From: Candidatus Acididesulfobacter diazotrophicus | Lineage (GTDB): Bacteria; SZUA-79; Acidulodesulfobacterales; Acidulodesulfobacteraceae | DNA length: 64,000 nt | Direction: 5' to 3' | NCBI GenBank assembly: GCA_004195025.1 | Contig: SGBB01000004.1 | Coordinates: 53,478-117,477, forward strand | Shown: in pieces, positions 4,909 to 59,879 of the stretch | Layout: every line of letters starts with the position of its first letter | Numbering within the stretch: position 1 is the first letter of the stretch | Position numbers and translations under genes: made by a program | Notes under the pieces: generated by a model | Databases searched by the model: none | Told to the model about the DNA's origin: nothing | Seen by the model: only the letters and a program-made list of their open reading frames with translations

Positions 4909-5475
4909 TTAATTTTGGCAATACTGCATTAGCGGCTGTTTAATTTTTTTAATTAAAAATGATAAAGCAAGGAGCATAATAAAAAAATATATTATACTAA
5001 AAATTAAATGAACGGCAGAATTAAATTGAATATTTAAAATAAATACAATAAGATTTAATAATATTAATATCGGAAACGACCATAGTAATATCCATCCTTC
5101 ATAAAAATGAAAACAATGCGCTTCTTTGCCGTATAATCCGCCCAAACCTGCTAATACTAATCCTATTGAAATTATAATTGAAATATCTTTAAATAAAGCA
5201 TTAAAATTAAAAAAGTAAAAAGAAACAGCACTAAGGAGTATTCCTGCTATAATACAAGAAAGTATAAAAATCTTAACTTCTTTCTTCCAAACAAGAAGAA
5301 ATATTCCTGAAAGAAGTGTTCCTGTTTCAAAAATTGCAAGTCCGAGCAATATATAATTTAAACTGTTAAAAATATATGAAAAAACAAATATCAAAATTCC
5401 TATAAATCCGATAACATAACCAATCCTGTATGTTATGTCGTAAGATTTAGGATAATAAACATCGTCTTGACTCAT
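4909..5475 (-). CDS. Hypothetical polytopic membrane protein (about 6 hydrophobic segments)
   Basis: 188-aa ORF that is almost entirely hydrophobic helices. I recognise no family motif. Confidence 0.5.
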   Translation of the reverse strand: MSQDDVYYPKSYDITYRIGYVIGFIGILIFVFSYIFNSLNYILLGLAIFETGTLLSGIFLLVWKKEVKIFILSCIIAGILLSAVSFYFFNFNALFKDISIIISIGLVLAGLGGLYGKEAHCFHFYEGWILLWSFPILILLNLIVFILNIQFNSAVHLIFSIIYFFIMLLALSFLIKKIKQPLMQYCQN

Positions 5476-9451: not shown

Positions 9452-9721
9452 TCATTTTCTAAGATCAAGAGATTCTATCAATGATTTATATCTTTCTTCA
9501 TTTTTGCCTTTAATATAATCAAGAAGATGTCTCCTCTTTGAAACCATTTTTAAAAGTCCTCTTCTTGAATGATGATCTTTAGCGAACTTTTTAAAATGTT
9601 CAGATAATAAATTGATGCGGTAAGTTAATAATGCAACCTGCACTTCAACTGAACCTGAATCAGAATCGTGCTTTTTAAATTTCCCGATTATTGACTGTTT
9701 TTCTTCCTTTGAAATAGCCAT
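9452..9721 (-). CDS. rpsO: 30S ribosomal protein S15
   Basis: 89 aa: [42 protein letters not shown] is the S15 signature region. Confidence 0.95.
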
Positions 9722-18773: not shown

Positions 18774-20556
18774 ATAACGGTAATTTAATATTGATTAATG
18801 TGCCTTTATTCTTTTTACTTTTTATACTAATATTTCCGTTAAAATTATCTAAAATAGATTTGACTATTGAAAGACCGAGTCCAGTACCGTTTTTTTTTGT
18901 GGTAAAAAGAGGCTTAAATATATTTTTAATAATATCTTCGCCTATACCTTCTCCATTGTCATAAAATTTCACAATTAAGCAATTATTAACTTTATTTTGT
19001 TCAATTAAAAAATCTCCTGAAATTTTTATAGAACTTATTCTGATTTTGCCCCTTTTATTATTACCGCAATTTTTATATCTTGATTTAATAGAAGCTGCTG
19101 CATTTTCAATTATGTTCACAAATATCTGCTGTAAACGGTATTTTTCAAAAAATATATTTATTTTGCCGTCAATTCTATTTTCTATATTATAATCTTCCGA
19201 TGATTTAAATTGAGAAATTATGTATTCTGAAAAATCATAAAGATTAAAATATTCAAAATTCACGGAATTATCTATTATATTAATATTAAAAGTTTTAGTT
19301 TTAGTATTGACAAAACCAAGAAAATCTTTTACAAGAGACTCAAGCCTTATAGTTTCTGCTTTTATGATTCCCGTCAATTTATTAAAATCGTCACCGCTAA
19401 TTTTCACGTCTTCAGCAAATTTTCTATTTTCAGAATTTAAAATATCTATAGAGGTATTAATTGCAGAGAGGGGGTTCCTTATTTCATGCGCAAGCCAGCC
19501 TGCTAATTTTCCGGTAGCAATTAATCCTTCATTTATTTTTGCGTCAAGCTCCAATTCTTTTACGTATGATATATCTCTAAAAAGCAGAATATGCCAACCG
19601 GAATTGTTATTCTCTTTAAACTTAGAATAAGAAAAACCGATAATGCTTCCGTTATGTTTAACTTCAAAACGAACATTGTTGATTTTTTCATCCTCAAAAA
19701 TATTCAGCGGAAAATCTTTAAAAATATCGTCTATTCTTAAATTGAAATAATAGAATGTACCTGCTTTGCCTGTCAGGGACTCTTTAAATATCCCTGCTCC
19801 AACCAAATCCATTCCAGATCTATTTACGAATACAATATCATTTTTATCATTTAAAACTATAACTCCCTGCGTGAAACTATTAATAAGTTCTTTATTAAAT
19901 ATTGCGGCATTTTTCATTACCTCGTCTATTTCTATCACTTTATTACTTAAATATTTTATGTTTTTAGAAAATTTATATAAAATCCAGCCGAATATTAATA
20001 AACCTAAAATATTTAAACTTAAAGCAAATAACAATTTATCAGGATTATATAAATAATAATAATGATCTGGAACATTAAAATAAAACTGCAAGTCGGCAAT
20101 AAAACCAATAGTTAAAGAAGAGGCAACGGTAAAAAAAATAATCCCTGCGCCTAAAAAAATAAATCCGGCTATTAAAATTAATAAATAATATAAAAGGATA
20201 AGATTGCTTCCTAATCCTCCGTTTAAAATTACAAAAGCCGATATTAATATAAAATCAAAGATAAGCTGTATTAATCCAAATAAACTAAAATATCTTTCTT
20301 TTTTCTTTTTTCTAATATAATAATTTATAAGTGAGTATAAAACAGTAAGAAAAAGAGCGATGAATAAAAAAATAAAAATTTCAACTTCAGTATAAATAAA
20401 CAGGCTTGAATTATGCTTAATTAAGATAATCAGGTAGGTTAAAACAGCTAAAGAAATTGCAGTAAATCTAAAAACTATAATAAATTTTAATTTTTCATAA
20501 ATATTATCTCCTTCAATATTAAAATTCAAGTTCAGGCTTTTATGTGCCATATGCAA
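18739..20556 (-). CDS. pilS: Membrane sensor histidine kinase, PilS-like by synteny
   Basis: About six N-terminal TM segments, H-box HEIRNPLSAI, and an ATPase region with GTGLGLSIVKSILDNFNG. It sits between pilC and the NtrC-type regulator. Confidence 0.65.
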   Translation of the reverse strand: MHMAHKSLNLNFNIEGDNIYEKLKFIIVFRFTAISLAVLTYLIILIKHNSSLFIYTEVEIFIFLFIALFLTVLYSLINYYIRKKKKERYFSLFGLIQLIFDFILISAFVILNGGLGSNLILLYYLLILIAGFIFLGAGIIFFTVASSLTIGFIADLQFYFNVPDHYYYLYNPDKLLFALSLNILGLLIFGWILYKFSKNIKYLSNKVIEIDEVMKNAAIFNKELINSFTQGVIVLNDKNDIVFVNRSGMDLVGAGIFKESLTGKAGTFYYFNLRIDDIFKDFPLNIFEDEKINNVRFEVKHNGSIIGFSYSKFKENNNSGWHILLFRDISYVKELELDAKINEGLIATGKLAGWLAHEIRNPLSAINTSIDILNSENRKFAEDVKISGDDFNKLTGIIKAETIRLESLVKDFLGFVNTKTKTFNINIIDNSVNFEYFNLYDFSEYIISQFKSSEDYNIENRIDGKINIFFEKYRLQQIFVNIIENAAASIKSRYKNCGNNKRGKIRISSIKISGDFLIEQNKVNNCLIVKFYDNGEGIGEDIIKNIFKPLFTTKKNGTGLGLSIVKSILDNFNGNISIKSKKNKGTLINIKLPLYEYNGHEDEEQ

Positions 20557-40296: not shown

Positions 40297-42642
40297 TTAT
40301 TTTTTATTCGTCTTTGTTTTGTTTTGTTTTTTTGTTTTTATTTTTTTATTTTGGCGGCTTCTTTGCAAGTTTTTTTGTAATAATTTATTTTCTATAAGTC
40401 TTAAATCTATTTCTCTTTTTAAAAGATCAATAGAATATATACCGACTTCAACTTCATCGCCTATTTTAAATATTTTGCCGGAATGCCTTCCTCTTAAGAT
40501 TTTGGTATTATAATTATATTCATAGTAATCATCTGCTATCGTAGATACATGCACAAAACCTGCAATAAAATATCCCGTAATTTGAACAAAAAAGCCAAAA
40601 TTAGTAACGCTGGTAATATAGCCGCTATAAATTTCCGCCGCATTTTTTTTTAAAAACTGCATTTTTTTAAATTCGGCATACTCTCTTTCTGCTTCGGTAG
40701 AAAGTCTTTCTCTTTGAGATATGAAACCGCCGGCTGATTTTAAATACTCATTATTCCACCATGAAGAATTATTATTTTTAACGCTGTTATCCGTTTCTGG
40801 ATATAATTCTGAATATATAATAATCTTTAGAATCCTGTGAACAATTAAATCAGCATATCTCCGTATAGGCGATGTAAAATGAGTATATGATTTGAGAGCT
40901 AAACCAAAATGATGAATATTTATATTAGAATATACTGCTATCTTCATTGATTTTAGGAATGCCTGCTCAAGAAAAGGGGATATAGGCTTTCCTTTTAGCG
41001 AATCTAGCATTTTCTGGTAATCTATGCCTGAATCTAATGATTTTGTGGAAAAATTAAAACCAAACGGTTTTATAGTTTTTAAAAATTCATTTATTTTTTC
41101 TTCATCAGGTTTTGCATGTACCCTATATAAAGAAGGTGCATTTTTACTTTCAATTAACTCAGATACGGCGCAGTTGGCGGTTATCATAAAATCTTCTATT
41201 AAATCATTTGCAAAATTTCTTTCTTCCTGCACTATTTTTTGAACATCTCCTGATTCGTCAATAATAACTTTGCTTGAAACTGGATCAAAATTAAGACTGC
41301 CGCTTTTAAGTCTCTTCATTCTTAATATATTAGACAACTCTTTCATTTGCAGGAGCATATCTTTGATAGGGTTAAGTTTTAAATAAACATTATCTTTTAT
41401 TTCTGCTTCATTGTTGTCTACACCTGAGATAAATTCAAAAACTTCGTTATAAGTTAATCTGCCGAAAGTTTTGATAATACCTTCATACACTTTTTTTTCA
41501 AGCAATTTGCCGTGCTTGTCTATTAGCATTTCGCAAACCATGACAAATCTTTTTGCTTTAGGGAGAAGACTGCATAAATTATTTGATAATCTTTCCGGAA
41601 GCATAGGATAAACTTTAGCAGGAAAATAAGTTGAATTACCTCTTTTATATGCTTCGATATCAATTTTGCTTCCATATTTAACAAAATAAGAAACATCGGC
41701 TATAGCGACATATAATTTGTATTTGACTCCAGTATTGCCCTTTTTATTAATTAACTCCAAATAGATAGCATCGTCAAAATCCTTAGCATCTTCTCCGTCT
41801 ATGGTAATAAAAGGAAGATTGGTCAAGTCTATCCTTCTTGCTTTGTTCTCTTTGTCATATAAATCGCTTTCTTCAAAATTTGCGGGAATTAAATCCGATT
41901 CTTTCAAGGTTTCTTCGTCAAAATCTTTATATAAATTGTATTTATTAATTATAATTTCTTCTTCTATACCGCTGCCGTCTATATCGCCTAATATTTTTTC
42001 CACCGATACTATTCTGGAAGAAAAATCTTCGGGGTTAATTAATTTAGCTTTAACAATAATCCCGTCTTTAATTTGTTTTTTATCTTTAAATCCATGCAAA
42101 TCAAAATAAAATAAATCCGTAAAATTGGATGAAACAGGTATGAGCGTGGCTATATTTTTATCTAATTTTACCGTCGCCATGAAACTTTCCAATTGTCTTT
42201 TAACAATTCTGACGACGCTGCCTCTGATTTTTTTATTTGATTTTGAAATATTTTTTAAATAATGCGAACTGTCTGGAATTACTCTTAACAAAACAATATC
42301 TTTCGGCAGCGCTCCTGCTAAATCAGAATTTTTAACATAAATATCTGACCCGCCTGCGCTATTTCTTACAAATGAAAAATTATCTTTTTTTGAAACTACT
42401 TCGCCTTCAATTAAATGAAGTTTTTGAGGTAATGCATATTTCCCTCCTTTAGTAAATATTATATCTCCGTTTTTTACCATTAAATCTAAAATTTCTTTAG
42501 CTTTTGCAAGTTTTACAGGAGAATTAATATTTAATTTATGTTTAATATCTAAAAGGGATAAGGGTATAGATTGTTCTTCAAAAAAAATATTGGAAATTTC
42601 TTCTTTAGATATGACTTTATTATTTTTAATGAAATTTTTCAT
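40297..42642 (-). CDS. rnr: Ribonuclease R
   Basis: 781 aa with RNB catalytic region DGEDAKDFDDAIY, HFTSPIRRYADLIVHR, a C-terminal S1 domain and a Lys-rich tail. Confidence 0.9.
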   Translation of the reverse strand: MKNFIKNNKVISKEEISNIFFEEQSIPLSLLDIKHKLNINSPVKLAKAKEILDLMVKNGDIIFTKGGKYALPQKLHLIEGEVVSKKDNFSFVRNSAGGSDIYVKNSDLAGALPKDIVLLRVIPDSSHYLKNISKSNKKIRGSVVRIVKRQLESFMATVKLDKNIATLIPVSSNFTDLFYFDLHGFKDKKQIKDGIIVKAKLINPEDFSSRIVSVEKILGDIDGSGIEEEIIINKYNLYKDFDEETLKESDLIPANFEESDLYDKENKARRIDLTNLPFITIDGEDAKDFDDAIYLELINKKGNTGVKYKLYVAIADVSYFVKYGSKIDIEAYKRGNSTYFPAKVYPMLPERLSNNLCSLLPKAKRFVMVCEMLIDKHGKLLEKKVYEGIIKTFGRLTYNEVFEFISGVDNNEAEIKDNVYLKLNPIKDMLLQMKELSNILRMKRLKSGSLNFDPVSSKVIIDESGDVQKIVQEERNFANDLIEDFMITANCAVSELIESKNAPSLYRVHAKPDEEKINEFLKTIKPFGFNFSTKSLDSGIDYQKMLDSLKGKPISPFLEQAFLKSMKIAVYSNINIHHFGLALKSYTHFTSPIRRYADLIVHRILKIIIYSELYPETDNSVKNNNSSWWNNEYLKSAGGFISQRERLSTEAEREYAEFKKMQFLKKNAAEIYSGYITSVTNFGFFVQITGYFIAGFVHVSTIADDYYEYNYNTKILRGRHSGKIFKIGDEVEVGIYSIDLLKREIDLRLIENKLLQKNLQRSRQNKKIKTKKQNKTKTNKK

Positions 42643-43028
42643 TATATTTATTATATTTATATTTAATATTTATATTTATTTGTATCTATATATGATATGT
42701 AATGCTATGTAATGCGTAATAAAAAATTATAACCGTTATAAAATTGCAAGCAAAACATTATTTATTTTTATCTATAATAATCCTGTATGAAATAAAGCAA
42801 TTTGTAATGTAATTTGCAATTAAATAATTAAAATTAAATTAAATTAAATTAAATATTAATATTCTATCATACATAATTAAAATATTTATAAATAATTATT
42901 CCAAATTAAGCTTAATTTGGTTATAATGAATCAGTATAATAAAAATCACTAATAATTAAAAGAATTAAATGATATCCTTAAATTACCGACAGAGATTATT
43001 AAATATACCGTAATGCATTAATAATATA

Positions 43029-43144
43029 GGATTAATGTATTCGCAGGAATGACACTAAAACTAAACAGGTGAACTTTTAAAATCCCTCAAAGTCGTTCCT
43101 GCACAGTAGTGAATCCAGAATAAATTTTCTATCGGCAATTTTGG
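43029..43144. repeat. About 116-bp palindromic intergenic element, same family as the 22054-22286 and 28349-28508 copies
   Basis: It contains cgcaggaatgac (rc gtcattcctgcg), the unit gtcgttcctgcacagtagtgaatccag, and the terminal ttctatcggcaattttgg. Its last 34 nt match the reverse complement of 22054-22090 at roughly 88% by hand alignment. Confidence 0.6.
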
Positions 43145-43221
43145 TTGATACAAGAAATATTAAACTTTAACATAAAAAAAATAAACATAAAAACATAAAA
43201 ACATAAAAAAATACAAAACCT

Positions 43222-43308
43222 GCCGGAATGGCGGAACTGGTAGACGCGCACGGTTCAGGGCCGTGTAAGATTTATCTTGTGGGGGTTCGATTCCCCCTTC
43301 CGGCACCA
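43222..43308 (+). tRNA. tRNA-Leu (anticodon CAG), class II with long variable arm, CCA encoded
   Basis: Hand-folded cloverleaf: acceptor GCCGGAA/TTCCGGC, anticodon stem cacgg/ccgtg with loop ttCAGgg, variable arm aagat-tt-atctt, and T arm ggggg-ttcgatt-ccccc. Confidence 0.9.
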
Positions 43309-43569
43309 TTTATTATATATATAATTTATATATAAATTATTCTACATATTATATTATATTGTTGCCGTCAGAAATAATTTCATTAACGGCAGTATTATTT
43401 ATAATTCAATATATTAATTTTATATATAAAATTAATATATTGCTTAAATAACATATTATTAATATATAATTATATATTACGGTATTATTATGAAATAAAA
43501 TTCTCTTTAATAATAAATCAATAATAAATCCATCATAAATTCATAAATATTAATTTTGAGGTATTTACA

Positions 43570-45705
43570 ATGAATATCAGTTTTAAAAATCGTTCAGCCA
43601 ATTTTATTTTAAACTATCCGCAATTAAAATTAATAAATAAAAAAAATAAAAAAATAGGCATCAGAATATTTATTTTATTTGTTTTTATATCTTTAATGTT
43701 TTCCACTATATTTTTGCCCAAAAAAGCATTTTCTTATCAAATAGCCCGGGCAGACGCCAAAACAAACACAAACACAAACAGCAATAACATGGTTAAACCA
43801 AAAAATATTAAAGCTGTTTCTTCGTCAATTATATTATTAGACCATACAAATGAAAGAATAACTTCTAAATTCAAAGATATTCTTGTCCAGCATGAAAAAA
43901 TTAAAGTTATCACAAAAAAAGGAATAAAAAAATATTCCGAACTTAGTTTTCCGTTTTCTATTAAAAATCAAAAATTAAAAATTTATTTTATCAAAATAAT
44001 AAAGCCTACCGGAAAAATAATAACTATTAATTTAAAAAATTTAAAAACGGTCACAGCTCCATTTAATATGAATGCTCCAATATTTTCAAACCGATTGTTA
44101 AAAACTATCCGCCTTCCTAATATTTCAAAAAACTCTGTTATAGACTATAAATTTAAGACGACTACTATTAAACCTTATATGAAAAATAATTTTTTTACGG
44201 AGGATTATTTTGGAGGCTTGTCCCCTGTCAAAAAATCTGTTTATCTGCTAACAATACCTGCAGGAATTCATTATAAATACGCAGAATATGGGCTGCGCAG
44301 CAAACCTGAAATTAAAAAAACAAATAAAACCGTTACATTAAAATGGATAGTAGTAAATAGAAAAAAAATAACTCCTGAAAATTTTGGTCCTGGCGAATCA
44401 TTTATAGTACCTCATGTTATGGTTTCTTCCGTTAAATCATGGAATGATGTTGCAAAATGGTATTCAACACTCACAGATAACCAAATAATGCCTGATAAAA
44501 AACTTAAAAATTTCATTAAAAAATTAACATATTCAAAAAAAAGAGAATCATACAAAATAAAAGCTATTTATAACTTTGTAGCAAAAAAAATTAGATATGT
44601 CGGCTATGAATTCGGCATTGGCGGCTATAAACCTAGCAATGTTAACAAAATATTTAAAAATAAATTTGGGGACTGTAAGGACCACGCAACGCTATTTATG
44701 TCCATGCTGCGTTCAATAGGAGTAAATGCTTATCCTGTTTTAATTCCGACTGTTATGATTCCCGATATGAATCCTGCATTGCCAACTCCATTTGTATTTG
44801 ACCATGAAATAACCGCAATAAAAATTAACGGCAATACTAATAAAATTATTAATAAATTAATATACCCAAACACATCTAAGATTTCATTTAACGATAACAA
44901 CTTTTCTCCTGTTGTAAAAGTGAACAACAATTTTTTCCTTTTCGCCGATACAACTTCTAATGTTACTACATTCGGAGATTTACCCCCTATGGATCAGGGA
45001 AGAAATGTTCTTATAATAATGCATAATAAAGGATTGGTTGTAAAAACACCGATATTTCCTCCTGCGTATAACAATATAATATTTAAGGAAAATGCTTCAA
45101 TAAATGAAAATGGTACTCTTACTTCAAAAACAAATGCCGTATACACAGGCGCTTATGATATGTACAAAAGATATGTTTTTACTTCAATCTCTAAAAGACA
45201 AAAACTAAATAAGATACTAAAAAATATTAATTCTATTACTCCTAAAGCAATATTGCTCCATTATTCTATAAGAAATGCAAACAGCATGGACAAACCTTTC
45301 ATTGAAAATATTACATTTAAAGCTAAAAAATATGCAGCGGAGAATCAAAAATTTTTTCTTATCAGACTTCCTATCAAAATAAGAACAATACTTTCTAAAA
45401 TTGCTATTTTAAAAAGCAGAAAATATTCTTTAAAATTGGGATATAATTTTTCGGAAACTAATATAATAAAATTAAATATTCCCGATGGATACATTATAGC
45501 TTTCAAGCCGCCGTATATTCACTATTCCAATAAAATAGGCTCTTTTTTTGCAGACTATAAGGTAAAAAACAATCAAATATTTTTTCATAGTATTTTTAAT
45601 GTCAACGGATATAAAATATTAAAACAAGATTATCCTTCTGCAAGAAAATTATTTGATAAAACAATTAAATATTTATCTAATCAAATACTAATAGCAAAAA
45701 AGTGA
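43570..45705 (+). CDS. Secreted DUF3857-like + transglutaminase-core protein
   Basis: It has an N-terminal signal/anchor. The transglutaminase catalytic Cys motif is FGDCKDHATLFMSMLRSIG in the central region. The size and layout resemble DUF3857/transglutaminase family proteins. Confidence 0.7.
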   Translation: MNISFKNRSANFILNYPQLKLINKKNKKIGIRIFILFVFISLMFSTIFLPKKAFSYQIARADAKTNTNTNSNNMVKPKNIKAVSSSIILLDHTNERITSKFKDILVQHEKIKVITKKGIKKYSELSFPFSIKNQKLKIYFIKIIKPTGKIITINLKNLKTVTAPFNMNAPIFSNRLLKTIRLPNISKNSVIDYKFKTTTIKPYMKNNFFTEDYFGGLSPVKKSVYLLTIPAGIHYKYAEYGLRSKPEIKKTNKTVTLKWIVVNRKKITPENFGPGESFIVPHVMVSSVKSWNDVAKWYSTLTDNQIMPDKKLKNFIKKLTYSKKRESYKIKAIYNFVAKKIRYVGYEFGIGGYKPSNVNKIFKNKFGDCKDHATLFMSMLRSIGVNAYPVLIPTVMIPDMNPALPTPFVFDHEITAIKINGNTNKIINKLIYPNTSKISFNDNNFSPVVKVNNNFFLFADTTSNVTTFGDLPPMDQGRNVLIIMHNKGLVVKTPIFPPAYNNIIFKENASINENGTLTSKTNAVYTGAYDMYKRYVFTSISKRQKLNKILKNINSITPKAILLHYSIRNANSMDKPFIENITFKAKKYAAENQKFFLIRLPIKIRTILSKIAILKSRKYSLKLGYNFSETNIIKLNIPDGYIIAFKPPYIHYSNKIGSFFADYKVKNNQIFFHSIFNVNGYKILKQDYPSARKLFDKTIKYLSNQILIAKK

Positions 45706-45751
45706 TTAATTTAATTATATTAATTAATTATATTCATTAATTATATTATAT

Positions 45752-46375
45752 ATGGATAAAAATACAAAAGAAAACAATAAAAAATGTGATTTAGATAAAG
45801 ATTTATCTATCCACAATAATTGGTTTAACGATACTTTAATATCCGTATTTGAATTAGGTTTAGTTCAAGTTTATACAGGAAACGGGAAAGGGAAAACGAC
45901 GGCTGCATTAGGACAGGCATTAAGAGCCTGTGGGCATAACCTGAAATCTGTTGTTATACAATTTCTGAAAGGGGGTTCTTATACCGGTGAATTTAAAATT
46001 CAAGAAAAACTTCAACCGTTTTTTAAAATATATCAATTTGGAAATCCATATTTTATAAATAAAAACTGCATCAGGGAGGAAGATTTAGAATTAAACAGAA
46101 ACGGTTTTAAATTAGCGCTTGAAATTGCCACGCAGCAAAATGATATTCATATATTAGTCTTAGATGAAATTAATGTTGCAGTTAATATCGGCATTATAAA
46201 AATAGATGAAGTTCTAAATTTAATAAAAAACAAAAGAAAAGATATAGAGCTGATACTTACGGGAAGATATGCTTCGCAAGAAATAATAGACGCAGCAGAC
46301 CTCGTAACTGAAATGAAAGAAATAAAACATTATTATAATAATAATGTTACTTCAAGATTCGGAATAGAAAAATGA
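45752..46375 (+). CDS. cobO: Cob(I)yrinic acid a,c-diamide adenosyltransferase (CobO/BtuR type)
   Basis: P-loop VYTGNGKGKTTAALGQALRA, followed by VIQFLKG and LDEIN motifs. Confidence 0.85.
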   Translation: MDKNTKENNKKCDLDKDLSIHNNWFNDTLISVFELGLVQVYTGNGKGKTTAALGQALRACGHNLKSVVIQFLKGGSYTGEFKIQEKLQPFFKIYQFGNPYFINKNCIREEDLELNRNGFKLALEIATQQNDIHILVLDEINVAVNIGIIKIDEVLNLIKNKRKDIELILTGRYASQEIIDAADLVTEMKEIKHYYNNNVTSRFGIEK

Positions 46376-46769
46376 ATAAAAATAAATAACGGTTTAACAA
46401 ATATTCTTGATTTAAAATATTTGATAATATATAATTAAAACTTATTTTTTATATTTTATATCATAATAATTTAATAATAAGTTAGGCATATAATTTAGAA
46501 AATGGATATAAATGAATATTGAAATTATCTAAACTAACATAAAAAAACAATATTATAGATTAAATTATGTATATATATGATAAAAAACCCATTTTTAATA
46601 ATAAAATAATTTTATTATTAAAAAAATAATTTATCTTTTGTTAATTTTTTATTATTATAATATATTTAGTATTATTGATTTTTATTTATATATTTTATTT
46701 ATATAACAATATTATATTTTATAAATAAAAATCAATAAATTCAAAAAATAAAATTCGGGGGTATATTTA

Positions 46770-47702
46770 ATGAAAGTCAGTATTATAGGAGCAGGAAGAT
46801 TAGGAGCTACTCTTGCATATACGTTAACGCTTAAAGATATTGTCAGAGAAATAACATTAATAGATATAAACAAAGACCTATCTAAAGGAGAAATGCTTGA
46901 TATATCGCACGGTATTTCTCTAACAGGACACACTAGAGTAAAAACTGCCGATTATGAATCCGTAAAAGATGCCGACATAATTGTTATAACTGCAGGCATA
47001 CCAAGGAAACCTGGTGAATCAAGACTTGATTTAAACAAAAAAAATGTTCATATATTAAAACAAATTGTAGAAAATATTATAAAATATAATACAAATTGTA
47101 TATTATTTGTAGTTTCCAACCCTGTAGATATAATGACTTATGTTGCTTATAAAACATCTGGATTTGAACGAAAAAAAGTTTTCGGAATGGGGACGATGCT
47201 TGACACGACTAGACTTCGTTCAGCCATAGGTTCTTATTTTGATCTTAATCCTGAGGATGTAGATATAATGTTCCTTGGAGAGCACGGAGACAGTATGACT
47301 CCTATTTTTTCTCTTGCAAGTATTAACAGTATTCCTTTGAGAGATATACCCGGGTACAACATGGAAAAACTCAAAGAAATAGCCGAACGTTCAAGCACAT
47401 GCGCTGCTGAAGTAATTGCGTTAAAAGGCGGAACAATCTTCGCTCCTGCGGTAGTGATGTCGGAAATCATAGAATCAATGGTCAAAGACAGGCGTCAAAT
47501 TATGCCTCTTTCGGTTTATCTTGAAGATTACTATGGAATAAATGGCATATACACAGGGGTTCCCGCTATATTATCAAAAGATGGAATAGAAAAAGTTATT
47601 AAACCTAAATTAACGGAAGAAGAAATTAAAGGATTAAATAAATCGGCTTCTGTAATAAAAAATGCAATCGACGATTTAAAAAAAGAAGGTTTAATAGAAT
47701 AA
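46770..47702 (+). CDS. mdh: Malate dehydrogenase (LDH-like MDH family)
   Basis: Rossmann KVSIIGAGRLG and GIPRKPGESRLDL, with Arg rather than Gln at the substrate-discriminating position, which favours MDH over LDH. The catalytic GEHGDS is present. Confidence 0.8.
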   Translation: MKVSIIGAGRLGATLAYTLTLKDIVREITLIDINKDLSKGEMLDISHGISLTGHTRVKTADYESVKDADIIVITAGIPRKPGESRLDLNKKNVHILKQIVENIIKYNTNCILFVVSNPVDIMTYVAYKTSGFERKKVFGMGTMLDTTRLRSAIGSYFDLNPEDVDIMFLGEHGDSMTPIFSLASINSIPLRDIPGYNMEKLKEIAERSSTCAAEVIALKGGTIFAPAVVMSEIIESMVKDRRQIMPLSVYLEDYYGINGIYTGVPAILSKDGIEKVIKPKLTEEEIKGLNKSASVIKNAIDDLKKEGLIE

Positions 47703-47959
47703 CTAATAAAATAACTAATAAATTTTAAAAATGACAAATTAAATTGTTTTTAACTTGTATTTATATAATGTATTAATTTATATAAATAATTTGCGCAATT
47801 ATTATAATATTATAATATATTCTTATAAATTCTTATATATTCTTATATTTATTTAATATTTTTTAATTATTAAACAAAATTTATTATTTTAAATTTTTAT
47901 TTTTTTTTATTTTTAAGCAATTATATTAATTTTGTTATTAATTATTATAATTGCTTTTC

Positions 47960-48598
47960 TTATTTCTTATTTTTACTTACGAGCAAAGTTTTAAATTTAT
48001 CTTTTCCGACCCTGATTAAATAATTTATTTTAAATCTGCCTGTAAATATTTTATTTTTATTCATATTTAAATAAACTTTATACCCCGTTAAATTATTAAG
48101 ACTGTTTAAAAAATTCTTTTTATAAATAATTAATCGCAAATACACTCTTCCGTCTTTTACTATAATTGATCTCAATTTGCTTTTAGGAAATTTATGAATG
48201 GAAACTGTATATAAAAGATTTGAAATATTAATTTGATTATATTTAATATTTTTAAAAAAATGCAGGTTATTTTTTAATTTATCTAAAAAAACCGAATTAT
48301 TTTTTATATGAATACTTAATGAAGATAATTCTTTATTATATTTAGCAATTATTTTATTGCTTGTGACATAATTAATAAAAAAAGCAAACCAAATTATAAT
48401 TAAAACAAAAATATATACTAAAATTATTATTTTCTGTTGTTTTTTATTTTTTCTATTATTATTGATTTTAGTATTATTTATTTTCTTAAAAGAATTATCC
48501 ATATCTAATAAATCAATGTCATTGCCGTCGCCGTAATTATCATCAATAATTTTATGAAAATCATCAATTTTAAAATCGCTCATAGTATTAATAAACAT
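47960..48598 (-). CDS. Hypothetical bitopic membrane protein, Asn/Lys-rich
   Basis: 212-aa ORF with an acidic N-terminus, one TM (IIILVYIFVLIIIWFAFFINYV) and a basic C-terminal domain. No family recognised. It is isolated by large AT-rich spacers. Confidence 0.5.
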   Translation of the reverse strand: MFINTMSDFKIDDFHKIIDDNYGDGNDIDLLDMDNSFKKINNTKINNNRKNKKQQKIIILVYIFVLIIIWFAFFINYVTSNKIIAKYNKELSSLSIHIKNNSVFLDKLKNNLHFFKNIKYNQINISNLLYTVSIHKFPKSKLRSIIVKDGRVYLRLIIYKKNFLNSLNNLTGYKVYLNMNKNKIFTGRFKINYLIRVGKDKFKTLLVSKNKK

Positions 48599-49037
48599 TA
48601 ATAAAATTAATAAATATTAAATTTATATACATAAATATTGTTAAACTTTTAAATAAGATACAATATTTTTTATATTTTTCAATATAATATTATATCAGCT
48701 ATACTATAATAGTATATATAAATATTATTTATTTGCAAATTTACAATTTTAATATATTAGTTCTAAATATATTAAAATTGTAACGTGATAGACTTATTGC
48801 TTATAATTAATCTAATATAAATTAAAATATAATGCAAACAATATTTTAATTTATAAAACAAAACACCAAAATACTTAATTTTTATTCTCATTAACTTATA
48901 TCTTAATAATGTAATAATAAATTAAATGCGATAATAAATTAAAAATTAATTTCAACAGGTAAAATAAAAGTAAACGACAAATACTTAATTTTTATTGAAT
49001 ATTATTAATTTATATTGTAAAATTAATACTATCAAAA

Positions 49038-49124
49038 GCCGAAGTGGTGGAATTGGTAGACGCACCGGACTCAAAATCCGGCGAAGGCAACTTCATGGGG
49101 GTTCGATTCCCCCCTTCGGCACCA
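49038..49124 (+). tRNA. tRNA-Leu (anticodon CAA), class II, CCA encoded; integration target
   Basis: Hand-folded: acceptor GCCGAAG/CTTCGGC, anticodon stem ccgga/tccgg with loop ctCAAaa, a long variable arm, and T arm ggggg-ttcgatt-ccccc. Confidence 0.9.
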
Positions 49125-49137
49125 CAGTAAATAAGCC
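49064..49137 (+). repeat. Direct repeat copy 1 (attL-like): 3' 61 nt of tRNA-Leu(CAA) plus 13 nt of flank
   Basis: It is identical at all 74 positions to 49879-49952 (aligned by hand). Confidence 0.95.
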
Positions 49138-49192
49138 GTTAAACTATATAAAAATATATAGTACTTTTTGTTTAAAATATTACCAAACGCAA

Positions 49193-49222
49193 CAAGGAGT
49201 GAGTAATAAAATAAATCGGATA
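49193..49222 (+). repeat. Copy of the AGGAG..GAGTAA..ATAAAATAAATCGGATA motif shared with 60511-60539 and 60774-60806
   Basis: caaggagtgagtaataaaataaatcggata: the 17-nt core ataaaataaatcggata is identical in all three copies. Confidence 0.6.
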
Positions 49223-49304
49223 CCTTTTAGTTTAATAATTTTATTAATGCTATAATAAATATACCTTATAAACAATGTAAGTAAAATATTTAAGGGAGGA
49301 AAAA

Positions 49305-49493
49305 ATGCAGACGGCCAAAAATGAGGTTGCCGACCTTCTCAAACGCTTACCTGATAATTGCACATTGGAAGACGTCCAGTATCATTTATATGTAATACAA
49401 AAAATTGAACGCGGATTGAAGGACGAGGAAGAAGGCCGCGTTTACGAAGAAAAAGAAATCGAAAAGAAAATGTCAAAATGGCTCGAAAAATAA
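49305..49493 (+). CDS. Putative type II antitoxin partnered with ParE/RelE-family toxin
   Basis: 62-aa acidic protein (LPDNCTLEDVQYHLYVIQKIERGLKDEEEG) with a strong RBS (gggagg) 7 nt upstream. It overlaps the toxin gene by 16 nt. I associate this sequence pattern with antitoxins paired to RelE/ParE toxins, but I cannot name the family. Confidence 0.65.
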   Translation: MQTAKNEVADLLKRLPDNCTLEDVQYHLYVIQKIERGLKDEEEGRVYEEKEIEKKMSKWLEK

Positions 49494-49792
49494 TCTGGAC
49501 ATTAGAATCCGCTGACGACCTTGAAGCGATTGCAACTTACATAGCTCGGGATTCCGGTTTTTATGCTAGGTCTTTCATCCGTGAAATCAGAGACGCAAGT
49601 CTCTCTCTTAAAGAATTTCCTGAAAGAGGCCGCATGGTTCCGGAATTTTCAAATACTGCCGTTCGTGAGCTTTTCATAAAAGAATACCGTCTTATATATA
49701 AAATAGAAGAATCCCGCATTGTCGTTCTAGGTATTATCCATGGAAAAAGAGACCTCAAGGTTTTATCTGAAAAAGATGGGTGGAAAAACTGA
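49478..49792 (+). CDS. ParE/RelE-family type II toxin (plasmid stabilisation system protein)
   Basis: 104 aa: IIWTLESADDLEAIATYIARDS...FPERGRMVPEF...RELFIKEYRLIYKIEESRIVVLGIIHGKRDL is the typical ParE/RelE layout. Confidence 0.8.
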   Translation: MARKIIWTLESADDLEAIATYIARDSGFYARSFIREIRDASLSLKEFPERGRMVPEFSNTAVRELFIKEYRLIYKIEESRIVVLGIIHGKRDLKVLSEKDGWKN

Positions 49793-49878
49793 TTTTCCGT
49801 TATAGCGGAATTCTAACATGGGCATATTTTTTATATGCAGAAATACATATTAAAATCAGTTAGTTATAAAATATCATA

Positions 49879-49939
49879 ACCGGACTCAAAATCCGGCGAA
49901 GGCAACTTCATGGGGGTTCGATTCCCCCCTTCGGCACCA
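49879..49939 (+). pseudogene. Displaced 3' fragment of tRNA-Leu(CAA), from anticodon stem to CCA
   Basis: It lacks the acceptor 5' strand and the D arm. It is identical to 49064-49124. Confidence 0.9.
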
Positions 49940-49952
49940 CAGTAAATAAGCC
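49879..49952 (+). repeat. Direct repeat copy 2 (attR-like)
   Basis: Exact 74-nt copy of 49064-49137. Confidence 0.95.
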
Positions 49953-50026
49953 TTTTTACCCACTTGACGTTAAATCATAATTTACGGAATCTACGGTAGA
50001 CGGCAAAAGACATCGTTATAGCTTAA

Positions 50027-50863
50027 TTAAGGCTTTTTTGCCATACTAAATTTATTGGATTGTTTTTTGATATTATCAAATTGCCAGTCAAGTTCTGCGA
50101 TTATCTCGTTATTAGATGTAATAGTAACCTTTCCCAATAAATCTTCTCTATGCGAAATTACTCCTACCGACAATTCTTCTGATAGAGCAAAACTGGCATA
50201 TGGCAATAATTTATTTAAATCGTTTTTAAAAACATAAAATACATCAATGTTATTTTGCGCCTGCTCATCCATAATATCTTTTATTTTAGAGAAATCATCC
50301 TCATTTTTTAAAATAAATATACGTTCAATGTGAACGCCTTTTTTCGCCTGCCTATAATTTAATTTTGTATGCTCAGTCGCATACTTACCAGATTTCCAAT
50401 AAAACGGTTCTATAAGATTACTCGCAACCTTAAAAGACTGACCAGGTTTTAATTCCTCCAATATAATCATTTTAGCAGCATAAATATCATGGAAAGTAAA
50501 ATCTCCTCCTTTTTCAGCCTGCTTTAATAGATGATGAATTTTCTCAAAATCTGCAATAGCTATTTGTGTCGAAATATCTGTTTTTTTCTTTTTAAGCTTG
50601 TTATATAGCATTATAGTTTCATTAACTACAATTTGTTCTTTGAGAGAAAGTTCTAATGACGGAAAAGCTGCCTTTAATCTTTTTTCCAGATTATCTATAG
50701 CTATTACCAACTCCGCAAAAATAGTCGCTAACGCAAAAGCCAATACGATTACTATTTTTGTAGAAGTACCCAAATGGAAATATACGCTTAACCAAAATGT
50801 GAGCACAATAAAGACAAGACCGAACAGCCCAATAAATAAGCGTAAAAATATAACTCTTGACAT
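50027..50863 (-). CDS. Hypothetical 2-TM protein with unassigned ~170-aa soluble C-terminal domain
   Basis: 278-aa ORF with TM segments at about residues 4-27 and 36-56, a Lys-rich linker, then a soluble domain (…FTFHDIYAAKMIILEELKPG…KGVHIERIFILKNEDD…). No family recognised. Confidence 0.55.
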   Translation of the reverse strand: MSRVIFLRLFIGLFGLVFIVLTFWLSVYFHLGTSTKIVIVLAFALATIFAELVIAIDNLEKRLKAAFPSLELSLKEQIVVNETIMLYNKLKKKKTDISTQIAIADFEKIHHLLKQAEKGGDFTFHDIYAAKMIILEELKPGQSFKVASNLIEPFYWKSGKYATEHTKLNYRQAKKGVHIERIFILKNEDDFSKIKDIMDEQAQNNIDVFYVFKNDLNKLLPYASFALSEELSVGVISHREDLLGKVTITSNNEIIAELDWQFDNIKKQSNKFSMAKKP

Positions 50864-51162
50864 TATATAATATAACCTCTCTATTTTTTTAGAAATTGTA
50901 AAATTATCTTTATTTTAAATGACAAACTGAGCTTATTCGTATAAGGACTCAACCATAAACCATACTTACTTAAAATGCGCATGGGAGAAATATGACAATT
51001 CTCCCCCTGCGCAACATAATTCTGGTTAATTAAATCCAAACGTAAGCTTTTACTCTGGCATGATCACCTTTTGGCGGCTTCAAACACTTTCTTTGTTATT
51101 TTAAATTTTAATTTAAGTCGTTATTCTTTTTATTGTTTTTATTAATAGTTTTACCGTTATTA

Positions 51163-51624
51163 TTAGCTTTTATTTGATTTATTGGCATTTGCGGTTATAG
51201 AATAAGACAATTTTTGTAAAACATCAATAATAATATGCAAAATTTTTGCAATAATCTCCGGCGTATTATCATTATCATTCGTTTTGTCACTGCCTTCTTT
51301 ATCCGATAAGTGTTTTGCATGCACGACAATGTCAACTAAACTGTGCGCCAAATAGACTACGAAATCAATAATACGTCTAATTTCTTCTTCATCCATTTTA
51401 ACTGCTTCTTTAACTTCTTCTGTTTTAGCCGTTACGCTTTTAGATGCATCGTTTTTTGTTGCTGCGCTTTTAGTCACTACGTCTTTAGCTTTGTGCGATA
51501 AAGAGTTCAGATAATCAATAACTTGGTTAATTTTTTCCTTATCCACTTTAACTACTTCACTTTTAATTTTCTGCAATAAAGAGTCTATATAATCAATAAC
51601 TTGGTTAATTTTTTCCTTATCCAT
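51163..51624 (-). CDS. Hypothetical repeat protein (three DKEKINQVIDY-type helical repeats)
   Basis: 153-aa ORF. MDKEKINQVIDYIDSL, VDKEKINQVIDYLNSL and MDEEEIRRIIDFVVYL occur in series. At the DNA level there is a 78-bp-period near-identical repeat (about 51510 and 51588). Confidence 0.5.
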   Translation of the reverse strand: MDKEKINQVIDYIDSLLQKIKSEVVKVDKEKINQVIDYLNSLSHKAKDVVTKSAATKNDASKSVTAKTEEVKEAVKMDEEEIRRIIDFVVYLAHSLVDIVVHAKHLSDKEGSDKTNDNDNTPEIIAKILHIIIDVLQKLSYSITANANKSNKS

Positions 51625-51975
51625 TTTAACTACTCCTTCTTTTAATTTAATTTAATAAATTTTTCATTTAATAATTTAATAAATAATATAAGTTAATTAA
51701 TATTATTTGATTATAATTTAAATACTATTTAAATTATAAATATTTTAATTACAATTAAAATATTTATAATTTTTTTGCCTTAATCCCTATTTATATAATA
51801 TAATAATTTTAATAATTTAAGAAACTGTATTGGTTAATATTATACCTTAATTATTAATGTATCATAAAATACTAATATTATCAATATACATTTTTGCTTT
51901 TAATATATTTTTATAATAATAAAAGCACATCTATTTGCCATTTTGCCTATATATTTTACACAACTTATTTATTTC

Positions 51976-53040
51976 TTATAATTTAGCCCTTTTATATTGA
52001 TCAGGCCATTCAATATCAACACCTAATTTATGGGCTGCATATAACGGCCAATAAGGGTTTCTTAAAAGCTCTCTGCCTAACGCAACCATATCAACTAAAT
52101 CTGAAGCAACAAGATAATCCGCAAACTCCGGTTTTGTAATCAAACCTACGGTAGAAACAGGAATATCGGCTTTTTTTCTTATTTCATCGGCAAACTTTAT
52201 TTGATATCCGTGGTATATTTTCATCTTGGCATGCGGAGATATCCCGCCTGAAGAACAATCAATTAAAGAAATTCCAACCTTTTTAAGCATTTTCGCAAGA
52301 TAAACCGAATCCTCTAATTGAACCCCGCCTTCAACCCAATCAATAGCGGAAATTCTGACAAAAATAGGTTTATTTTCCGACCAAACAGACTTAATACTTG
52401 TTATTATTTCTAATAACAATCTAGCTCTATTTTCAATTGGACCGCCATATAAATCTGTTCTTTTATTAGATTCAGGAGATAAAAACTCATTAATCAAATA
52501 GCCGTGGGCAGCATGAATTTCAATAATATCAAATCCTGCGTCATTTGCGTTTTTTGCTGCATTAGTAAAATCATTTATTACTTTTTTTATGTCATTATAA
52601 TCCATTTCTTTTGGAACAGGAAACCCTTCATTAAATTGAATTGCACTCGGAGCCAATGTCTGCCATGCGCCATTTTGAGAATTTAACGGCTTTTCGCCTA
52701 ACCATGGAGCATCGGTTGAAGCTTTCCTTCCTGCATGAGCAAGCTGAATACCCATTGCAGAGCCAAAACTTTTGCAAAATCTAACTATCGGTTTAAATGC
52801 TTCAACATGTTTTTTATCCCATATTCCCGCATCATAAGGACTAATTCTGCCTTCAGGACTGACACCCGTCGCTTCAACCATAATTAATCCTACTCCTCCG
52901 ACTGCTCTTGAGCCAAGATGAGCCATATGGAAATCCGAAACAACACCGTCTTTCGCAGAATACACGCACATCGGAGCCATCATTATTCTGTTTTTAATCG
53001 TTAAATCTTTAAACTGTATTGACTTAAAAAGCATACTCAT
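51976..53040 (-). CDS. Old Yellow Enzyme family NADH:flavin oxidoreductase (YqjM/NamA-like)
   Basis: MAPMCVYSA, HAAHGYLINEFLSPESNKRTDLYGG, and a C-terminal GRELLRNPYW. Confidence 0.85.
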   Translation of the reverse strand: MSMLFKSIQFKDLTIKNRIMMAPMCVYSAKDGVVSDFHMAHLGSRAVGGVGLIMVEATGVSPEGRISPYDAGIWDKKHVEAFKPIVRFCKSFGSAMGIQLAHAGRKASTDAPWLGEKPLNSQNGAWQTLAPSAIQFNEGFPVPKEMDYNDIKKVINDFTNAAKNANDAGFDIIEIHAAHGYLINEFLSPESNKRTDLYGGPIENRARLLLEIITSIKSVWSENKPIFVRISAIDWVEGGVQLEDSVYLAKMLKKVGISLIDCSSGGISPHAKMKIYHGYQIKFADEIRKKADIPVSTVGLITKPEFADYLVASDLVDMVALGRELLRNPYWPLYAAHKLGVDIEWPDQYKRAKL

Positions 53041-58583: not shown

Positions 58584-59879
58584 TTATTTAATAGATTTAG
58601 CGAATGCATAAGTTCTTTTAAAATATTCATTTGAAAGGCTATTTACGGTAACCTTGCCTACTCCTGAATTTGCCTGAATAAATTTTCCATGTCCTATATA
58701 TATTCCGACATGTGAAATATATGCAGCATATGTTCTAAAAAATAACAACATACCAGGCTTCAATTTACTTTTCGGAACATATTTTCCAAGCCTTGATTGT
58801 TCTTGTGCAGTTCTTGGGATACTAATGTCTAATTTTTTAAAAACACGCTGAACAAATCCCGAACAATCCATGCCGCTGCGCGTGGTTCCTCCCCAAACAT
58901 ATGGAACACCACGATACCTGAACGCTACTTTAACTATTTTTTTCCCAAGGTAATCATGCTTTTTATAGTTATTAAGACTGTCATTTGAATTGTTGTAAAC
59001 ATTTTTATGCAGTACTTCAAATGATGCCGTTTTATTATTATTGTTATTACTAAAATGATTAATTCTATTATCTGCAACTTTATAACTTTCAGGAACTGTA
59101 AGAACGGCGCCCTGTCTTATTACATTTGAATAAAGATGATTTAAATTTTTTAATTGGCTTATTGAGGTATTATATTTTTGGGCTATCAAAGATAGCGTAT
59201 CTCCAAACTTAACAACATAGTGTCCGTATGTCACTGCAGGCTGCTGCGGAACATAAGCGCCTCCGGAAACTATCTTGAGTTTTTGACCTGTATATATGTT
59301 GTAGTTTGATAAACCGTTTTCAGACATTATAGAAGAAACCGACGTATTATATTTGGAAGCAATCTGACTTAGGGTATAACCTGGTTGAACGGTGACATAA
59401 ATAATATCGGCGGAAGGATGATGATAAATAGGAACTGTAAGAACGGCGCCCTGTCTTATTACATTTGAATAAAGATGATTTAAATTTTTTAATTGGCTTA
59501 TTGAGGTATTATATTTTTGGGCTATCAAAGATAGCGTATCTCCAAACTTAACAACATAGTGTCCGTATGTCACTGCAGGCTGCTGCGGAACATAAGCGCC
59601 TCCGGAAACTATCTTGAGTTTTTGACCTGTATATATGTTGTAGTTTGATAAACCGTTTTCAGACATTATAGAAGAAACCGACGTATTATATTTGGAAGCA
59701 ATCTGACTTAGGGTATAACCTGGTTGAACGGTGACATAAATAATATCGGCGGAAACATCACCAGGACTAAAATATATTATTGAAAAAATTAAATAAACTA
59801 TTAAACTAATTAAAATTATAAATTGATTTTTATGATTTTTATGGTTATTGCAGTTTTTTAAAAAAATTTCATACGCCAT
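58584..59879 (-). CDS. Cell-wall hydrolase with four LysM domains and C-terminal NlpC/P60 domain
   Basis: LysM repeats (YVTVQPGYTLSQIASKYNTSVSSIMSENGL; YVVKFGDTLSLIAQKYNTSISQLKNLN), each present twice. The NlpC/P60 catalytic region is GVPYVWGGTTRSGMDCSGFVQRVF. Confidence 0.85.
   Translation of the reverse strand: MAYEIFLKNCNNHKNHKNQFIILISLIVYLIFSIIYFSPGDVSADIIYVTVQPGYTLSQIASKYNTSVSSIMSENGLSNYNIYTGQKLKIVSGGAYVPQQPAVTYGHYVVKFGDTLSLIAQKYNTSISQLKNLNHLYSNVIRQGAVLTVPIYHHPSADIIYVTVQPGYTLSQIASKYNTSVSSIMSENGLSNYNIYTGQKLKIVSGGAYVPQQPAVTYGHYVVKFGDTLSLIAQKYNTSISQLKNLNHLYSNVIRQGAVLTVPESYKVADNRINHFSNNNNNKTASFEVLHKNVYNNSNDSLNNYKKHDYLGKKIVKVAFRYRGVPYVWGGTTRSGMDCSGFVQRVFKKLDISIPRTAQEQSRLGKYVPKSKLKPGMLLFFRTYAAYISHVGIYIGHGKFIQANSGVGKVTVNSLSNEYFKRTYAFAKSIK
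59091..59754. repeat. Perfect 325-bp direct duplication (59091-59415 = 59430-59754), period 339 bp, in frame inside the LysM hydrolase gene
   Basis: Base-by-base comparison of the two copies shows no mismatch. They are separated by 14 nt. Confidence 0.95.

Follow-up and report, generated by a model that had tools for sequence, protein, structure and literature searches.

How did a 0.8-kb segment, which is bounded by two copies of the same tRNA part and encodes nothing besides a toxin-antitoxin (TA) operon, come to lie beside a tRNA gene without a recombinase of its own, and what keeps it there? This question is raised by a locus in a 64,000-nt stretch of DNA from Candidatus Acididesulfobacter diazotrophicus (assembly GCA_004195025.1, contig SGBB01000004.1, positions 53,478 to 117,477), which in its full length is called the window here and whose own numbering is used below. 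In this locus a complete tRNA-Leu(CAA) gene is followed by a ParE-type TA operon and then by a partial copy of the tRNA, and the segment enclosed in this way is referred to as the islet. The islet is most likely the worn-down stub of an integrase-borne island and not a new kind of mobile element. Its origin as a deletion remnant of an ordinary tRNA-targeting integrative island, held in place by its addiction module, was one of two options offered by a first-pass annotation made from the sequence alone; it is the one favoured by the comparative data, and we regard it as probable. The locus would then be a clean natural example of island decay, in which the integrase and the cargo are gone and what stays is the addiction module with the att scars. 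Of interest are the well-documented decay series, a portable module of TA genes and att arm that lies next to four tRNA genes, and an antitoxin family without annotation.

The tRNA repeat and the operon it encloses

The tRNA-Leu(CAA) gene at 49038-49124 (plus strand) was called complete by ARAGORN, in agreement with the first-pass annotation. Its 3' 61 nt and the following 13 nt of flank (CAGTAAATAAGCC) make up a 74-nt core, and the copy that includes the end of the gene (49064-49137, attL) is identical at 74 of 74 positions to a second one at 49879-49952 (attR), both on the plus strand, which bears out an alignment first made by hand. A repeat search extended the pair to 49064-49140 and 49879-49955 with a start-to-start spacing of 815; after the 74 matching positions, position 75 is G in one copy and T in the other, followed by 2 more matches. 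A 25-nt piece of the repeat is present at both places, with an expectation of 0.00 from 100 shuffles. A third 'copy' of 17 nt at 50825-50841 (82% identity) was set aside as a chance match. As had been noticed before, the copy begins at the anticodon stem, more exactly one base 5' of its 5' strand (CCGGA-CTCAAAA-TCCGG, with the anticodon at 49072-49074). An identity block of this kind, which spans the tRNA from its anticodon stem and passes its 3' end, corresponds to what we take to be the classic anticodon-loop class of tRNA integration sites. The sublocations used for integration into tRNA and tmRNA genes were reportedly classified by Williams in 2002, and P4-like elements are tRNA-integrating elements with a tyrosine integrase and an anticodon-loop crossover. 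The proposal that the repeat represents an attL/attR-type footprint of tyrosine-recombinase integration at the anticodon-loop region of the tRNA is supported. The islet shares with tRNA-integrating islands and prophages the identity block from the anticodon stem to just past the 3' end as well as the restoration of the gene by the element; in such islands the integrase adjoins the tRNA, as in an intact relative described below (L026), whereas the islet is without integrase and only the arms and the TA operon are left. The variable arm of the tRNA in the window reads GAAGGCAACTTC; the genus-typical GGGAGCAATCCC occurs in the nearest relatives and in a displaced copy of the tRNA half in another haplotype of the species (attR2 of L001, see below). 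The 3' 61 nt of the tRNA-Leu(CAA) in the window were, to judge from this difference, most likely contributed by the integrating element.

The possibility that the second 74-nt copy is an assembly artefact, with which the first-pass annotation had reckoned, is next to nil. Some contigs do break near the repeat (L006, L016, L017, L019), but the whole arrangement recurs in at least nine independent assemblies of the same species from three repositories (metagenome-assembled genomes (MAGs) at NCBI, ENA and JGI), at 99.7-100% identity and on contigs that span both copies, so it is no artefact; the spacing of 815 bp also far exceeds any k-mer.

Within the 815-bp segment only two open reading frames (ORFs) of at least 40 aa are found on the coding strand, and both belong to the TA operon. 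A candidate antitoxin of 62 aa (49305-49493, plus strand) precedes a ParE-family toxin of 104 aa (49478-49792, plus strand) with an overlap of 16 nt and with GGGAGG in front, as the first-pass annotation had described. Its further statement that the segment has no integrase also agrees with a tblastn search with the integrase of L026, which gave nothing in the entire window. Searches with hidden Markov models confirmed the ParE/RelE-type assignment for the toxin and not for the antitoxin. The toxin matched PF05016 with E 9.3e-18 and 65 bits (cut-off 23) and, among PDB structures, the ParE chains 6x0a (5e-08), 5cw7 and 5czf, its score against TIGR02385 being under the cut-off; by these profiles it is clearly a member of the ParE/RelE superfamily. 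The antitoxin had no match in Pfam or NCBIfam even at E 5, and its C-terminus showed a weak likeness to the ParD-type CopG protein 6xrw_B (E 1.1). In all contexts examined it lies upstream of the toxin with the 16-nt overlap, and this conserved pairing and overlap lend indirect support to a toxic action of the ParE protein and to its neutralisation by the candidate antitoxin. The operon resembles ParDE type II systems in its PF05016 toxin, the structural matches to ParE and the small overlapping antitoxin gene upstream, and it differs from the curated ones in that the candidate antitoxin fails every curated antitoxin model. More than 670 homologues of the antitoxin, mostly of exactly 62 aa, were found in Nitrospirota, Thermodesulfovibrionales, Bacteroidota and others, some of which are named 'predicted transcriptional regulator' at JGI. 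The locus documents a widespread 62-aa antitoxin family that is paired with ParE and has no curated model. A PADLOC search with the two TA proteins, with the 278-aa and 153-aa proteins encoded further downstream and with the 144-aa protein of a second island (see below) returned no match.

Integrase islands and their remnants at the same tRNA

For comparison, 27 loci from related species were retrieved by anchoring on the gene for lactate/malate dehydrogenase (LDH) 1.3 kb upstream of the tRNA; two of these bear the name Candidatus Acidulodesulfobacterium, a lineage of acid mine drainage (PMC6776010). In seven of these loci (L025, L028, L030, L039, L041, L044, L045) LDH, a gene for a 212-aa hypothetical protein, tRNA-Leu(CAA) and a gene for an NADH:flavin oxidoreductase (OYE) are contiguous, with 55-170 nt between the tRNA and OYE. 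In the window the 212-aa gene is located at 47960-48598 (minus strand); in most of the 27 loci tblastn placed it ahead of tRNA-Leu(CAA), and it marks the host side of the site. OYE (51976-53040, minus strand; PF00724 E 2e-81) is the ancestral right-hand neighbour of the tRNA. Because the gap between tRNA and OYE is so short in the seven related species, the whole region 49125-51975 (about 2.85 kb) is a lineage-specific insert, of which the 0.8-kb islet is only the tRNA-proximal part. The view of a bounded 0.8-kb segment falls short of the entire composite insert, which includes the junction of a second island. Empty sites, the search for which had been recommended, exist in the seven related species and were not found within the species: all conspecific contigs that span the site (L001-L005, L007-L009) carry the TA islet, and the toxin is present in 15 conspecific contigs. 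That the insert is foreign, as had been stated, is borne out by its absence from the seven species and by 91-92% nucleotide identity to modules in other genomes, and not by base composition. For the first 60 nt of the antitoxin gene, the earlier count of 28 G+C is correct; the TA genes have 40% GC compared to 34-37% in the conserved host genes (LDH, OYE), and only the intergenic flanks are very AT-rich (12-23% GC). Since these flanks are intergenic and the host genes have 34-37% GC, composition alone is weak evidence of foreignness, and GC content was discarded as proof of it.

Integrases or integrase stubs were found at the same tRNA in L026, L029, L036, L081 and L001. The locus L026 has an intact tyrosine integrase of 348 aa (PF00589 E 1e-28, SAM-like N-domain), which starts about 155 nt after the tRNA, and L029 and L036 have frameshifted copies after tRNA-Leu(CAA). 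The island of L029 is 5.8 kb long and ends in an AbrB/PIN TA pair adjoining OYE; no attR was found when the islands with an integrase in L026, L029 and L036 were searched for one. From the genes seen at this site, tRNA-Leu(CAA) is an integration hotspot for one integrase family, for which the attP type was written as CA(A/G)(G/T)AAATAAGCC. The site is thereby marked as such a hotspot in Candidatus Acidulodesulfobacterium, a lineage from acid mine drainage about which little is known. A further case of an integrase stub and a TA pair beside a tRNA is the locus L157 (7785-9203), where tRNA-Gly(CCC) is followed by an integrase N-terminal stub of 141 aa (57% identity to the stub of L001) and a MazE/PIN TA pair.

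The step from an integrase-bearing element to an integrase-less islet is preserved in a sister species. Three loci (L080-L082; toxin with 81% aa identity) contain a unit of 1.1 kb with tRNA-Leu(CAA), an 84-aa ORF, the TA operon and a partial tRNA-Leu(CAA); the similarity of the att sites covers about 100 nt, and the TA module of L081 has 84% nucleotide identity to that of the window. In the 84-aa ORF of L081, integrase residues 1-50 continue in frame, through a shared (R/K)ENG, into the final 37 residues of a 200-aa replisome-organiser-like gene, which precedes the TA operon in another locus, L077. At the nucleotide level, L081 500-961 is 93% identical to L029 and L081 950-1746 is 89% identical to L077. 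The sequence of L081 shows an unambiguous internal deletion, by which an element with an integrase became a TA islet lacking one, and this sister-species intermediate keeps the exact in-frame deletion junction.

More was retained in a second haplotype of the species itself (L001, GCA_054609135.1), which upstream of the site shares 99.8% identity with the window. Its TA unit is followed by an extra 236 bp, which hold the left arm of the islet, 41 nt from the region upstream of the tRNA and, once more, a complete tRNA-Leu(CAA). Then comes a second island, which encodes an N-terminal integrase stub of 140 aa, contains a 144-aa ORF and has a partial tRNA copy of its own (attR). The stub is 45% identical to the integrase of L026 and has a weak SAM-like match, and no full-length close relative of it was found among 5.8 billion proteins. 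In the attR of this second island the variable arm is GGGAGCAATCCC and the flank aligns to the native flank of L041 with 88.6% identity over 88 nt; because of the genus-typical variable arm and the L041-like flank it is the displaced original 3' half of the host tRNA, and the presence of such a displaced half is a prediction of the anticodon-loop crossover model that the sequence of L001 matches. At 10402-10700 of L001 the partial tRNA, its 13-nt flank and about 96 nt of the left arm follow each other once more, an attP-like junction of right arm, core and left arm. An abrupt junction between CCTTTTAGTT and GAATATTATT then leads into the 41 nt of tRNA upstream sequence and the second full tRNA-Leu(CAA), and the base at this junction falls on the left boundary of the transferred TA module described in the next section. 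No derivation of this structure with its extra 236 bp from simple duplication, integration or unequal crossover was found. An exact 18-nt direct repeat (AAATACTTAATTTTTATT) is present in the window at 48869-48886 and 48979-48996; its second copy ends exactly at the start of the 41-nt tRNA upstream segment that is duplicated in L001, and approximately at the point where homology to L041 begins.

The window retains a trace of the second island. Its positions 49879-49983 align to L001 10638-10741, which comprise the 3' part of the second tRNA and the first 31 nt of the second island, so the attR of the islet is at the same time the left junction of a nearly erased second island; the remnant of its left end, with about 31 nt of homology, is located at 49953-49991 (plus strand). 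The region 10742-12358 of L001 is missing from the window, which from 49992 onward rejoins L001 about 250 nt past its attR. This alignment indicates that the second island was almost wholly deleted from the window, the original tRNA half included. In another conspecific contig (L017, GCA_021835865.1, JAKBJS010000099.1), which is 99.9% identical upstream and equals the window at 40591-49124 before it diverges, tRNA-Leu(CAA) has the variable arm GGGAGCAATCCC and the flank TATGTTTTATAAGATTCTCC, and the contig then ends (8440-8554). This type of flank is found at both empty and integrase-occupied sites of other species; L017 might represent a third haplotype or a chimeric contig end.

The portable module and its arms

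Between attL and the TA genes lies a non-coding left arm ('armA', 49138-49231, plus strand, 23% GC), which is presumably an attL-proximal remnant of the element. Apart from the conspecific contigs, no significant match to it was found in the other loci. Its alignment score against the tRNA upstream region was within that of shuffles, and the idea that it is a diverged copy of this region was rejected, the score being no better than for shuffled sequences. At its end the left arm carries a motif of about 20 nt (AAATAAATCGGATACCTTT, 49208-49229) that recurs in intergenic DNA of several related species (L029 18863-18884, minus strand, and 19039-19058, plus strand; L078 9290-9308; L040, L027 and L045), and in L029 the motif forms an inverted pair between the PIN toxin gene and OYE.

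The next part, 49232-49870 (plus strand), is a horizontally transferred TA module that comprises a promoter-like region, the antitoxin and toxin genes and most of the right arm. Exactly this span has 91-92% nucleotide identity to L073-L076, where the gene contexts are different, and up to 49830 the same identity is found with L068-L070; the genomes with such modules have 35-38% GC. These nucleotide identities show that the TA module has spread horizontally. Its left boundary (49232) is identical in three unrelated contexts, and in L068-L072 the module occurs without a tRNA fragment. In L073 the promoter-like region of the TA operon (about 45 nt) occurs twice, at 3251-3407 and 4966-5010, 1.6 kb apart, and the same is seen in L074 and L085; the copies in L073 carry a remnant of the replisome-organiser gene tail and flank MNT, HEPN and 75-aa genes, as if these had been inserted at the promoter.

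Next to tRNA genes, the module was found in five contexts with the same order of toxin stop, conserved arm of about 86 nt, 8-10 variable bases and a partial tRNA that starts at the anticodon stem. The partial tRNA corresponds to Leu(CAA) in the TA islets of the window, L001 and L081. In L078 it corresponds to Leu(TAA), with 60/61 identical positions to the full gene 2.2 kb upstream and with MNT/HepT genes and an ORF6N-like fragment as content. In L085 it corresponds to His(GTG), with 64/69 identical positions to the full gene 9.5 kb upstream, and the content includes type III restriction-modification (R-M) and MNT/HEPN-type genes. The fragment of L077 is Gln(CTG)-like, with the full gene out of view and with primase, DUF3987, HTH_17 and replisome-organiser genes as content, the HTH_17 protein being an excisionase candidate. 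The fragments were aligned to the full tRNA genes of their own loci, Rfam cmscan reporting only full tRNAs. When a synthetic 5' half was added to the fragments of L077 and L085, ARAGORN called Gln(CTG) and His(GTG); these calls are only supportive, because half of each molecule was supplied. An intact integrase was found in none of the five contexts. The island of L085 (1-9700, JGI Ga0207433_10013507) is 9.5 kb long and integrase-less and reaches from tRNA-His(GTG) at 31-106 to the 69-nt partial copy at 9588-9656, with the type III R-M system, the MNT/HEPN-type pair and the ParE TA operon at the attR end.

The right arm of the islet (49793-49878, plus strand) is regarded as the P arm of a former attP. 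In an alignment of six attR arms it has a conserved TTAGTTATAA box 11-21 nt ahead of the core, and the core-proximal part of the arm including TTAGTTATAA is also found in the TA-less second island of L001. A 23-nt motif (TTATGGCGAGATTTTCACATAGG) follows closely on the toxin stop, and in L026, L029, L036 and L081 it is also found in the stretch that separates the tRNA flank from the integrase start; the right arm of the window holds a diverged copy of it (17/23). As the motif is common to the right arm and the integrase-proximal arm of intact elements, the right arm is a candidate for an arm-type integrase site, and we infer that the motif is a plausible arm-type binding site of the integrase on both attP arms.

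The sharp boundaries of the TA module at promoter-like AT-rich sequence, the L001 junction at the same base with microhomology, and the occurrence of the module without tRNA fragment in L068-L072 could also be explained if a local segmental duplication or illegitimate recombination copied the 3' part of the tRNA and the TA operon arrived via homologous or microhomology recombination, with no site-specific integration being involved. Such an origin is very unlikely: the anticodon stem is the starting point of the copy and also of the partial copies of three other tRNAs beside the same arm, integrases and their stubs are found at this tRNA in relatives, and the displaced original tRNA half is recognisable in L001. 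The possibility of an integron gene cassette was rejected as well, because the module ends in a tRNA fragment, shows no attC-like imperfect inverted repeat and has no IntI or other integrase nearby.

Decay, hitchhiking and the remaining insert

Collectively, the favoured explanation of a decayed island would include the following steps. An element with a tyrosine integrase would have recombined at the anticodon stem-loop of tRNA-Leu(CAA), and a relative bearing the TA operon would have integrated in tandem. As the attP of the element carried a replacement for the tRNA 3' part together with about 13 nt of flank, the integration would have left a whole tRNA at attL and the 74-nt partial copy at attR. 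In the parent element the ParE/antitoxin operon would have been located at the very end, with the 86-nt arm separating it from the core. An internal deletion would then have removed the integrase and the other cargo, so that the left arm (49138-49231), the TA operon with its arm and both att cores stayed behind. Cells losing the TA operon would lose the labile antitoxin and be poisoned by leftover toxin, whereas deletions sparing it would be tolerated; it is proposed that the operon and its arm survived because their loss is lethal through post-segregational killing. This addiction step leans on the established role of type II TA systems in islands and prophages. Finally, nearly all of a second tandem island of the same family downstream would have been lost by deletion, and with it the displaced original tRNA half. 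Without its own recombinase the islet is probably immobile unless a related integrase is supplied.

Several observations weigh against this explanation. The left arm of the window matches no integrase-bearing element, so the deletion that formed the islet is inferred by analogy, and no intact parent with an integrase at one end and this TA operon at the other was found; a metagenome scan with the toxin returned four close relatives, three of them known loci and one new (L086, 92%), with no integrase-linked parent, and scans of viral contigs gave distant integrases only (22-32% identity) and no toxin relative. The lack of an intact integrase from all five tRNA-associated TA contexts would fit repeated decay as well as hitchhiking. 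The shared left boundary at 49232 and the L001 junction at that base hint at a process more specific than random deletion. The attP-like junction of L001 and the different tRNA 3' half of L017 point to recent recombination at the locus, and the perfect identity at 74/74 positions implies recency or gene conversion.

Some of these points would suit the alternative that the islet is a functional, integrase-less hitchhiker with competent attL and attR sites, similar to the cis-mobilizable elements (CIMEs), which have lost integration and transfer genes and kept intact attL and attR, and of which ICEberg 2.0 lists 235 (PMC6323972). It could move by co-excision with an adjacent integrase-bearing element after tandem accretion or by an integrase in trans, and the TA operon would secure its retention in each new host. 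In its favour, both att cores are intact and match each other fully, a second island accreted in tandem is seen at the same site, L001 has an attP-like junction, and the right arm has the 23-nt motif of the integrase-proximal arm of intact elements. Moreover, TA operon and arm lie beside four different tRNA 3' halves in loci of 0.8, 1.1, 2.2 and 9.5 kb as well as in L077, without intact integrase, and TA similarity does not track att specificity, as the window is 92% identical to the tRNA-His-linked copy and 84% to the other tRNA-Leu(CAA)-linked one. On the other hand, there is no empty site among conspecific contigs, the left arm has neither the 23-nt motif nor a homologue in intact elements, and the motif copy in the right arm of the window has diverged (17/23). 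The window encodes no integrase of the family, an intact relative is not on record for the cognate stub, and L081 shows that islets of this type arise by simple deletion. The missing intact integrase in five contexts is also partly a sampling effect, because MAG assemblies favour fixed, decayed islands over active ones. A functional hitchhiker is therefore considered unlikely. Comparably doubtful is its narrowest form, in which the operon of ParE and the 62-aa antitoxin, the 86-nt arm and a tRNA 3' half alone make up a minimal integrase-less hitchhiker; anticodon-loop integrases may in that case move the unit among Leu-CAA, Leu-TAA, His and Gln tRNA genes, with the TA pair as sole cargo and retention device. 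If true, it would be a 'selfish att cassette', with all described CIMEs being far larger, and the CIME concept would then also cover TA cassettes of less than 1 kb at tRNA genes.

The decayed islet also compares well with known elements. The first-pass annotation had believed integrase-less cassettes with flanking att sites to be an undescribed class, which is incorrect, because CIMEs are defined by lost integration and transfer genes and intact attL and attR (PMC6323972). By its structure the islet qualifies as a CIME. Like the CIMEs of Streptococcus it has no integration or transfer genes, keeps both att sites and shows tandem accretion at one att site, and those CIMEs are likewise thought to be deletion derivatives of integrative elements (PMC6323972); the tandem islands of L001 and the remnant at 49953-49991 represent the structural prerequisite for a mobilisation in cis after accretion with an incoming related element. 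Unlike them, the islet measures 0.8 kb, contains only a TA pair, uses a tRNA anticodon-loop site and resides in an uncultured acidophile, and no partner integrative and conjugative element or conjugation module is known for it. Type II TA systems on integrated elements include ParESO-CopASO in prophage CP4So (PMC8706911) and HipAB in the tRNA-Trp composite island CGI48 (PMC8978831), one of them ParE-type as in the islet, and retention of the element has been credited to them. Those elements are large and still excise, whereas in the islet the TA operon outlived the rest of the element, and its antitoxin belongs to the unannotated 62-aa family, unlike the curated CopA or ParD.

The rest of the composite insert (49992-51975, minus strand) is lineage-specific DNA that is absent from the seven related loci and contains genes for proteins of 278 aa (50027-50863) and 153 aa (51163-51624). 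Both genes are missing at this position from all related species, and no Pfam, NCBIfam or PADLOC family was found for either of them; the 278-aa protein has N-terminal transmembrane segments and the 153-aa protein internal repeats. Further downstream, two 325-nt stretches (59091-59415 and 59430-59754; 339 nt apart) gave 100% cross-matches between the conspecific locus L002 and the window. They are located in the region of a LysM/NlpC_P60 gene, where L002 differs from the window by one gap.

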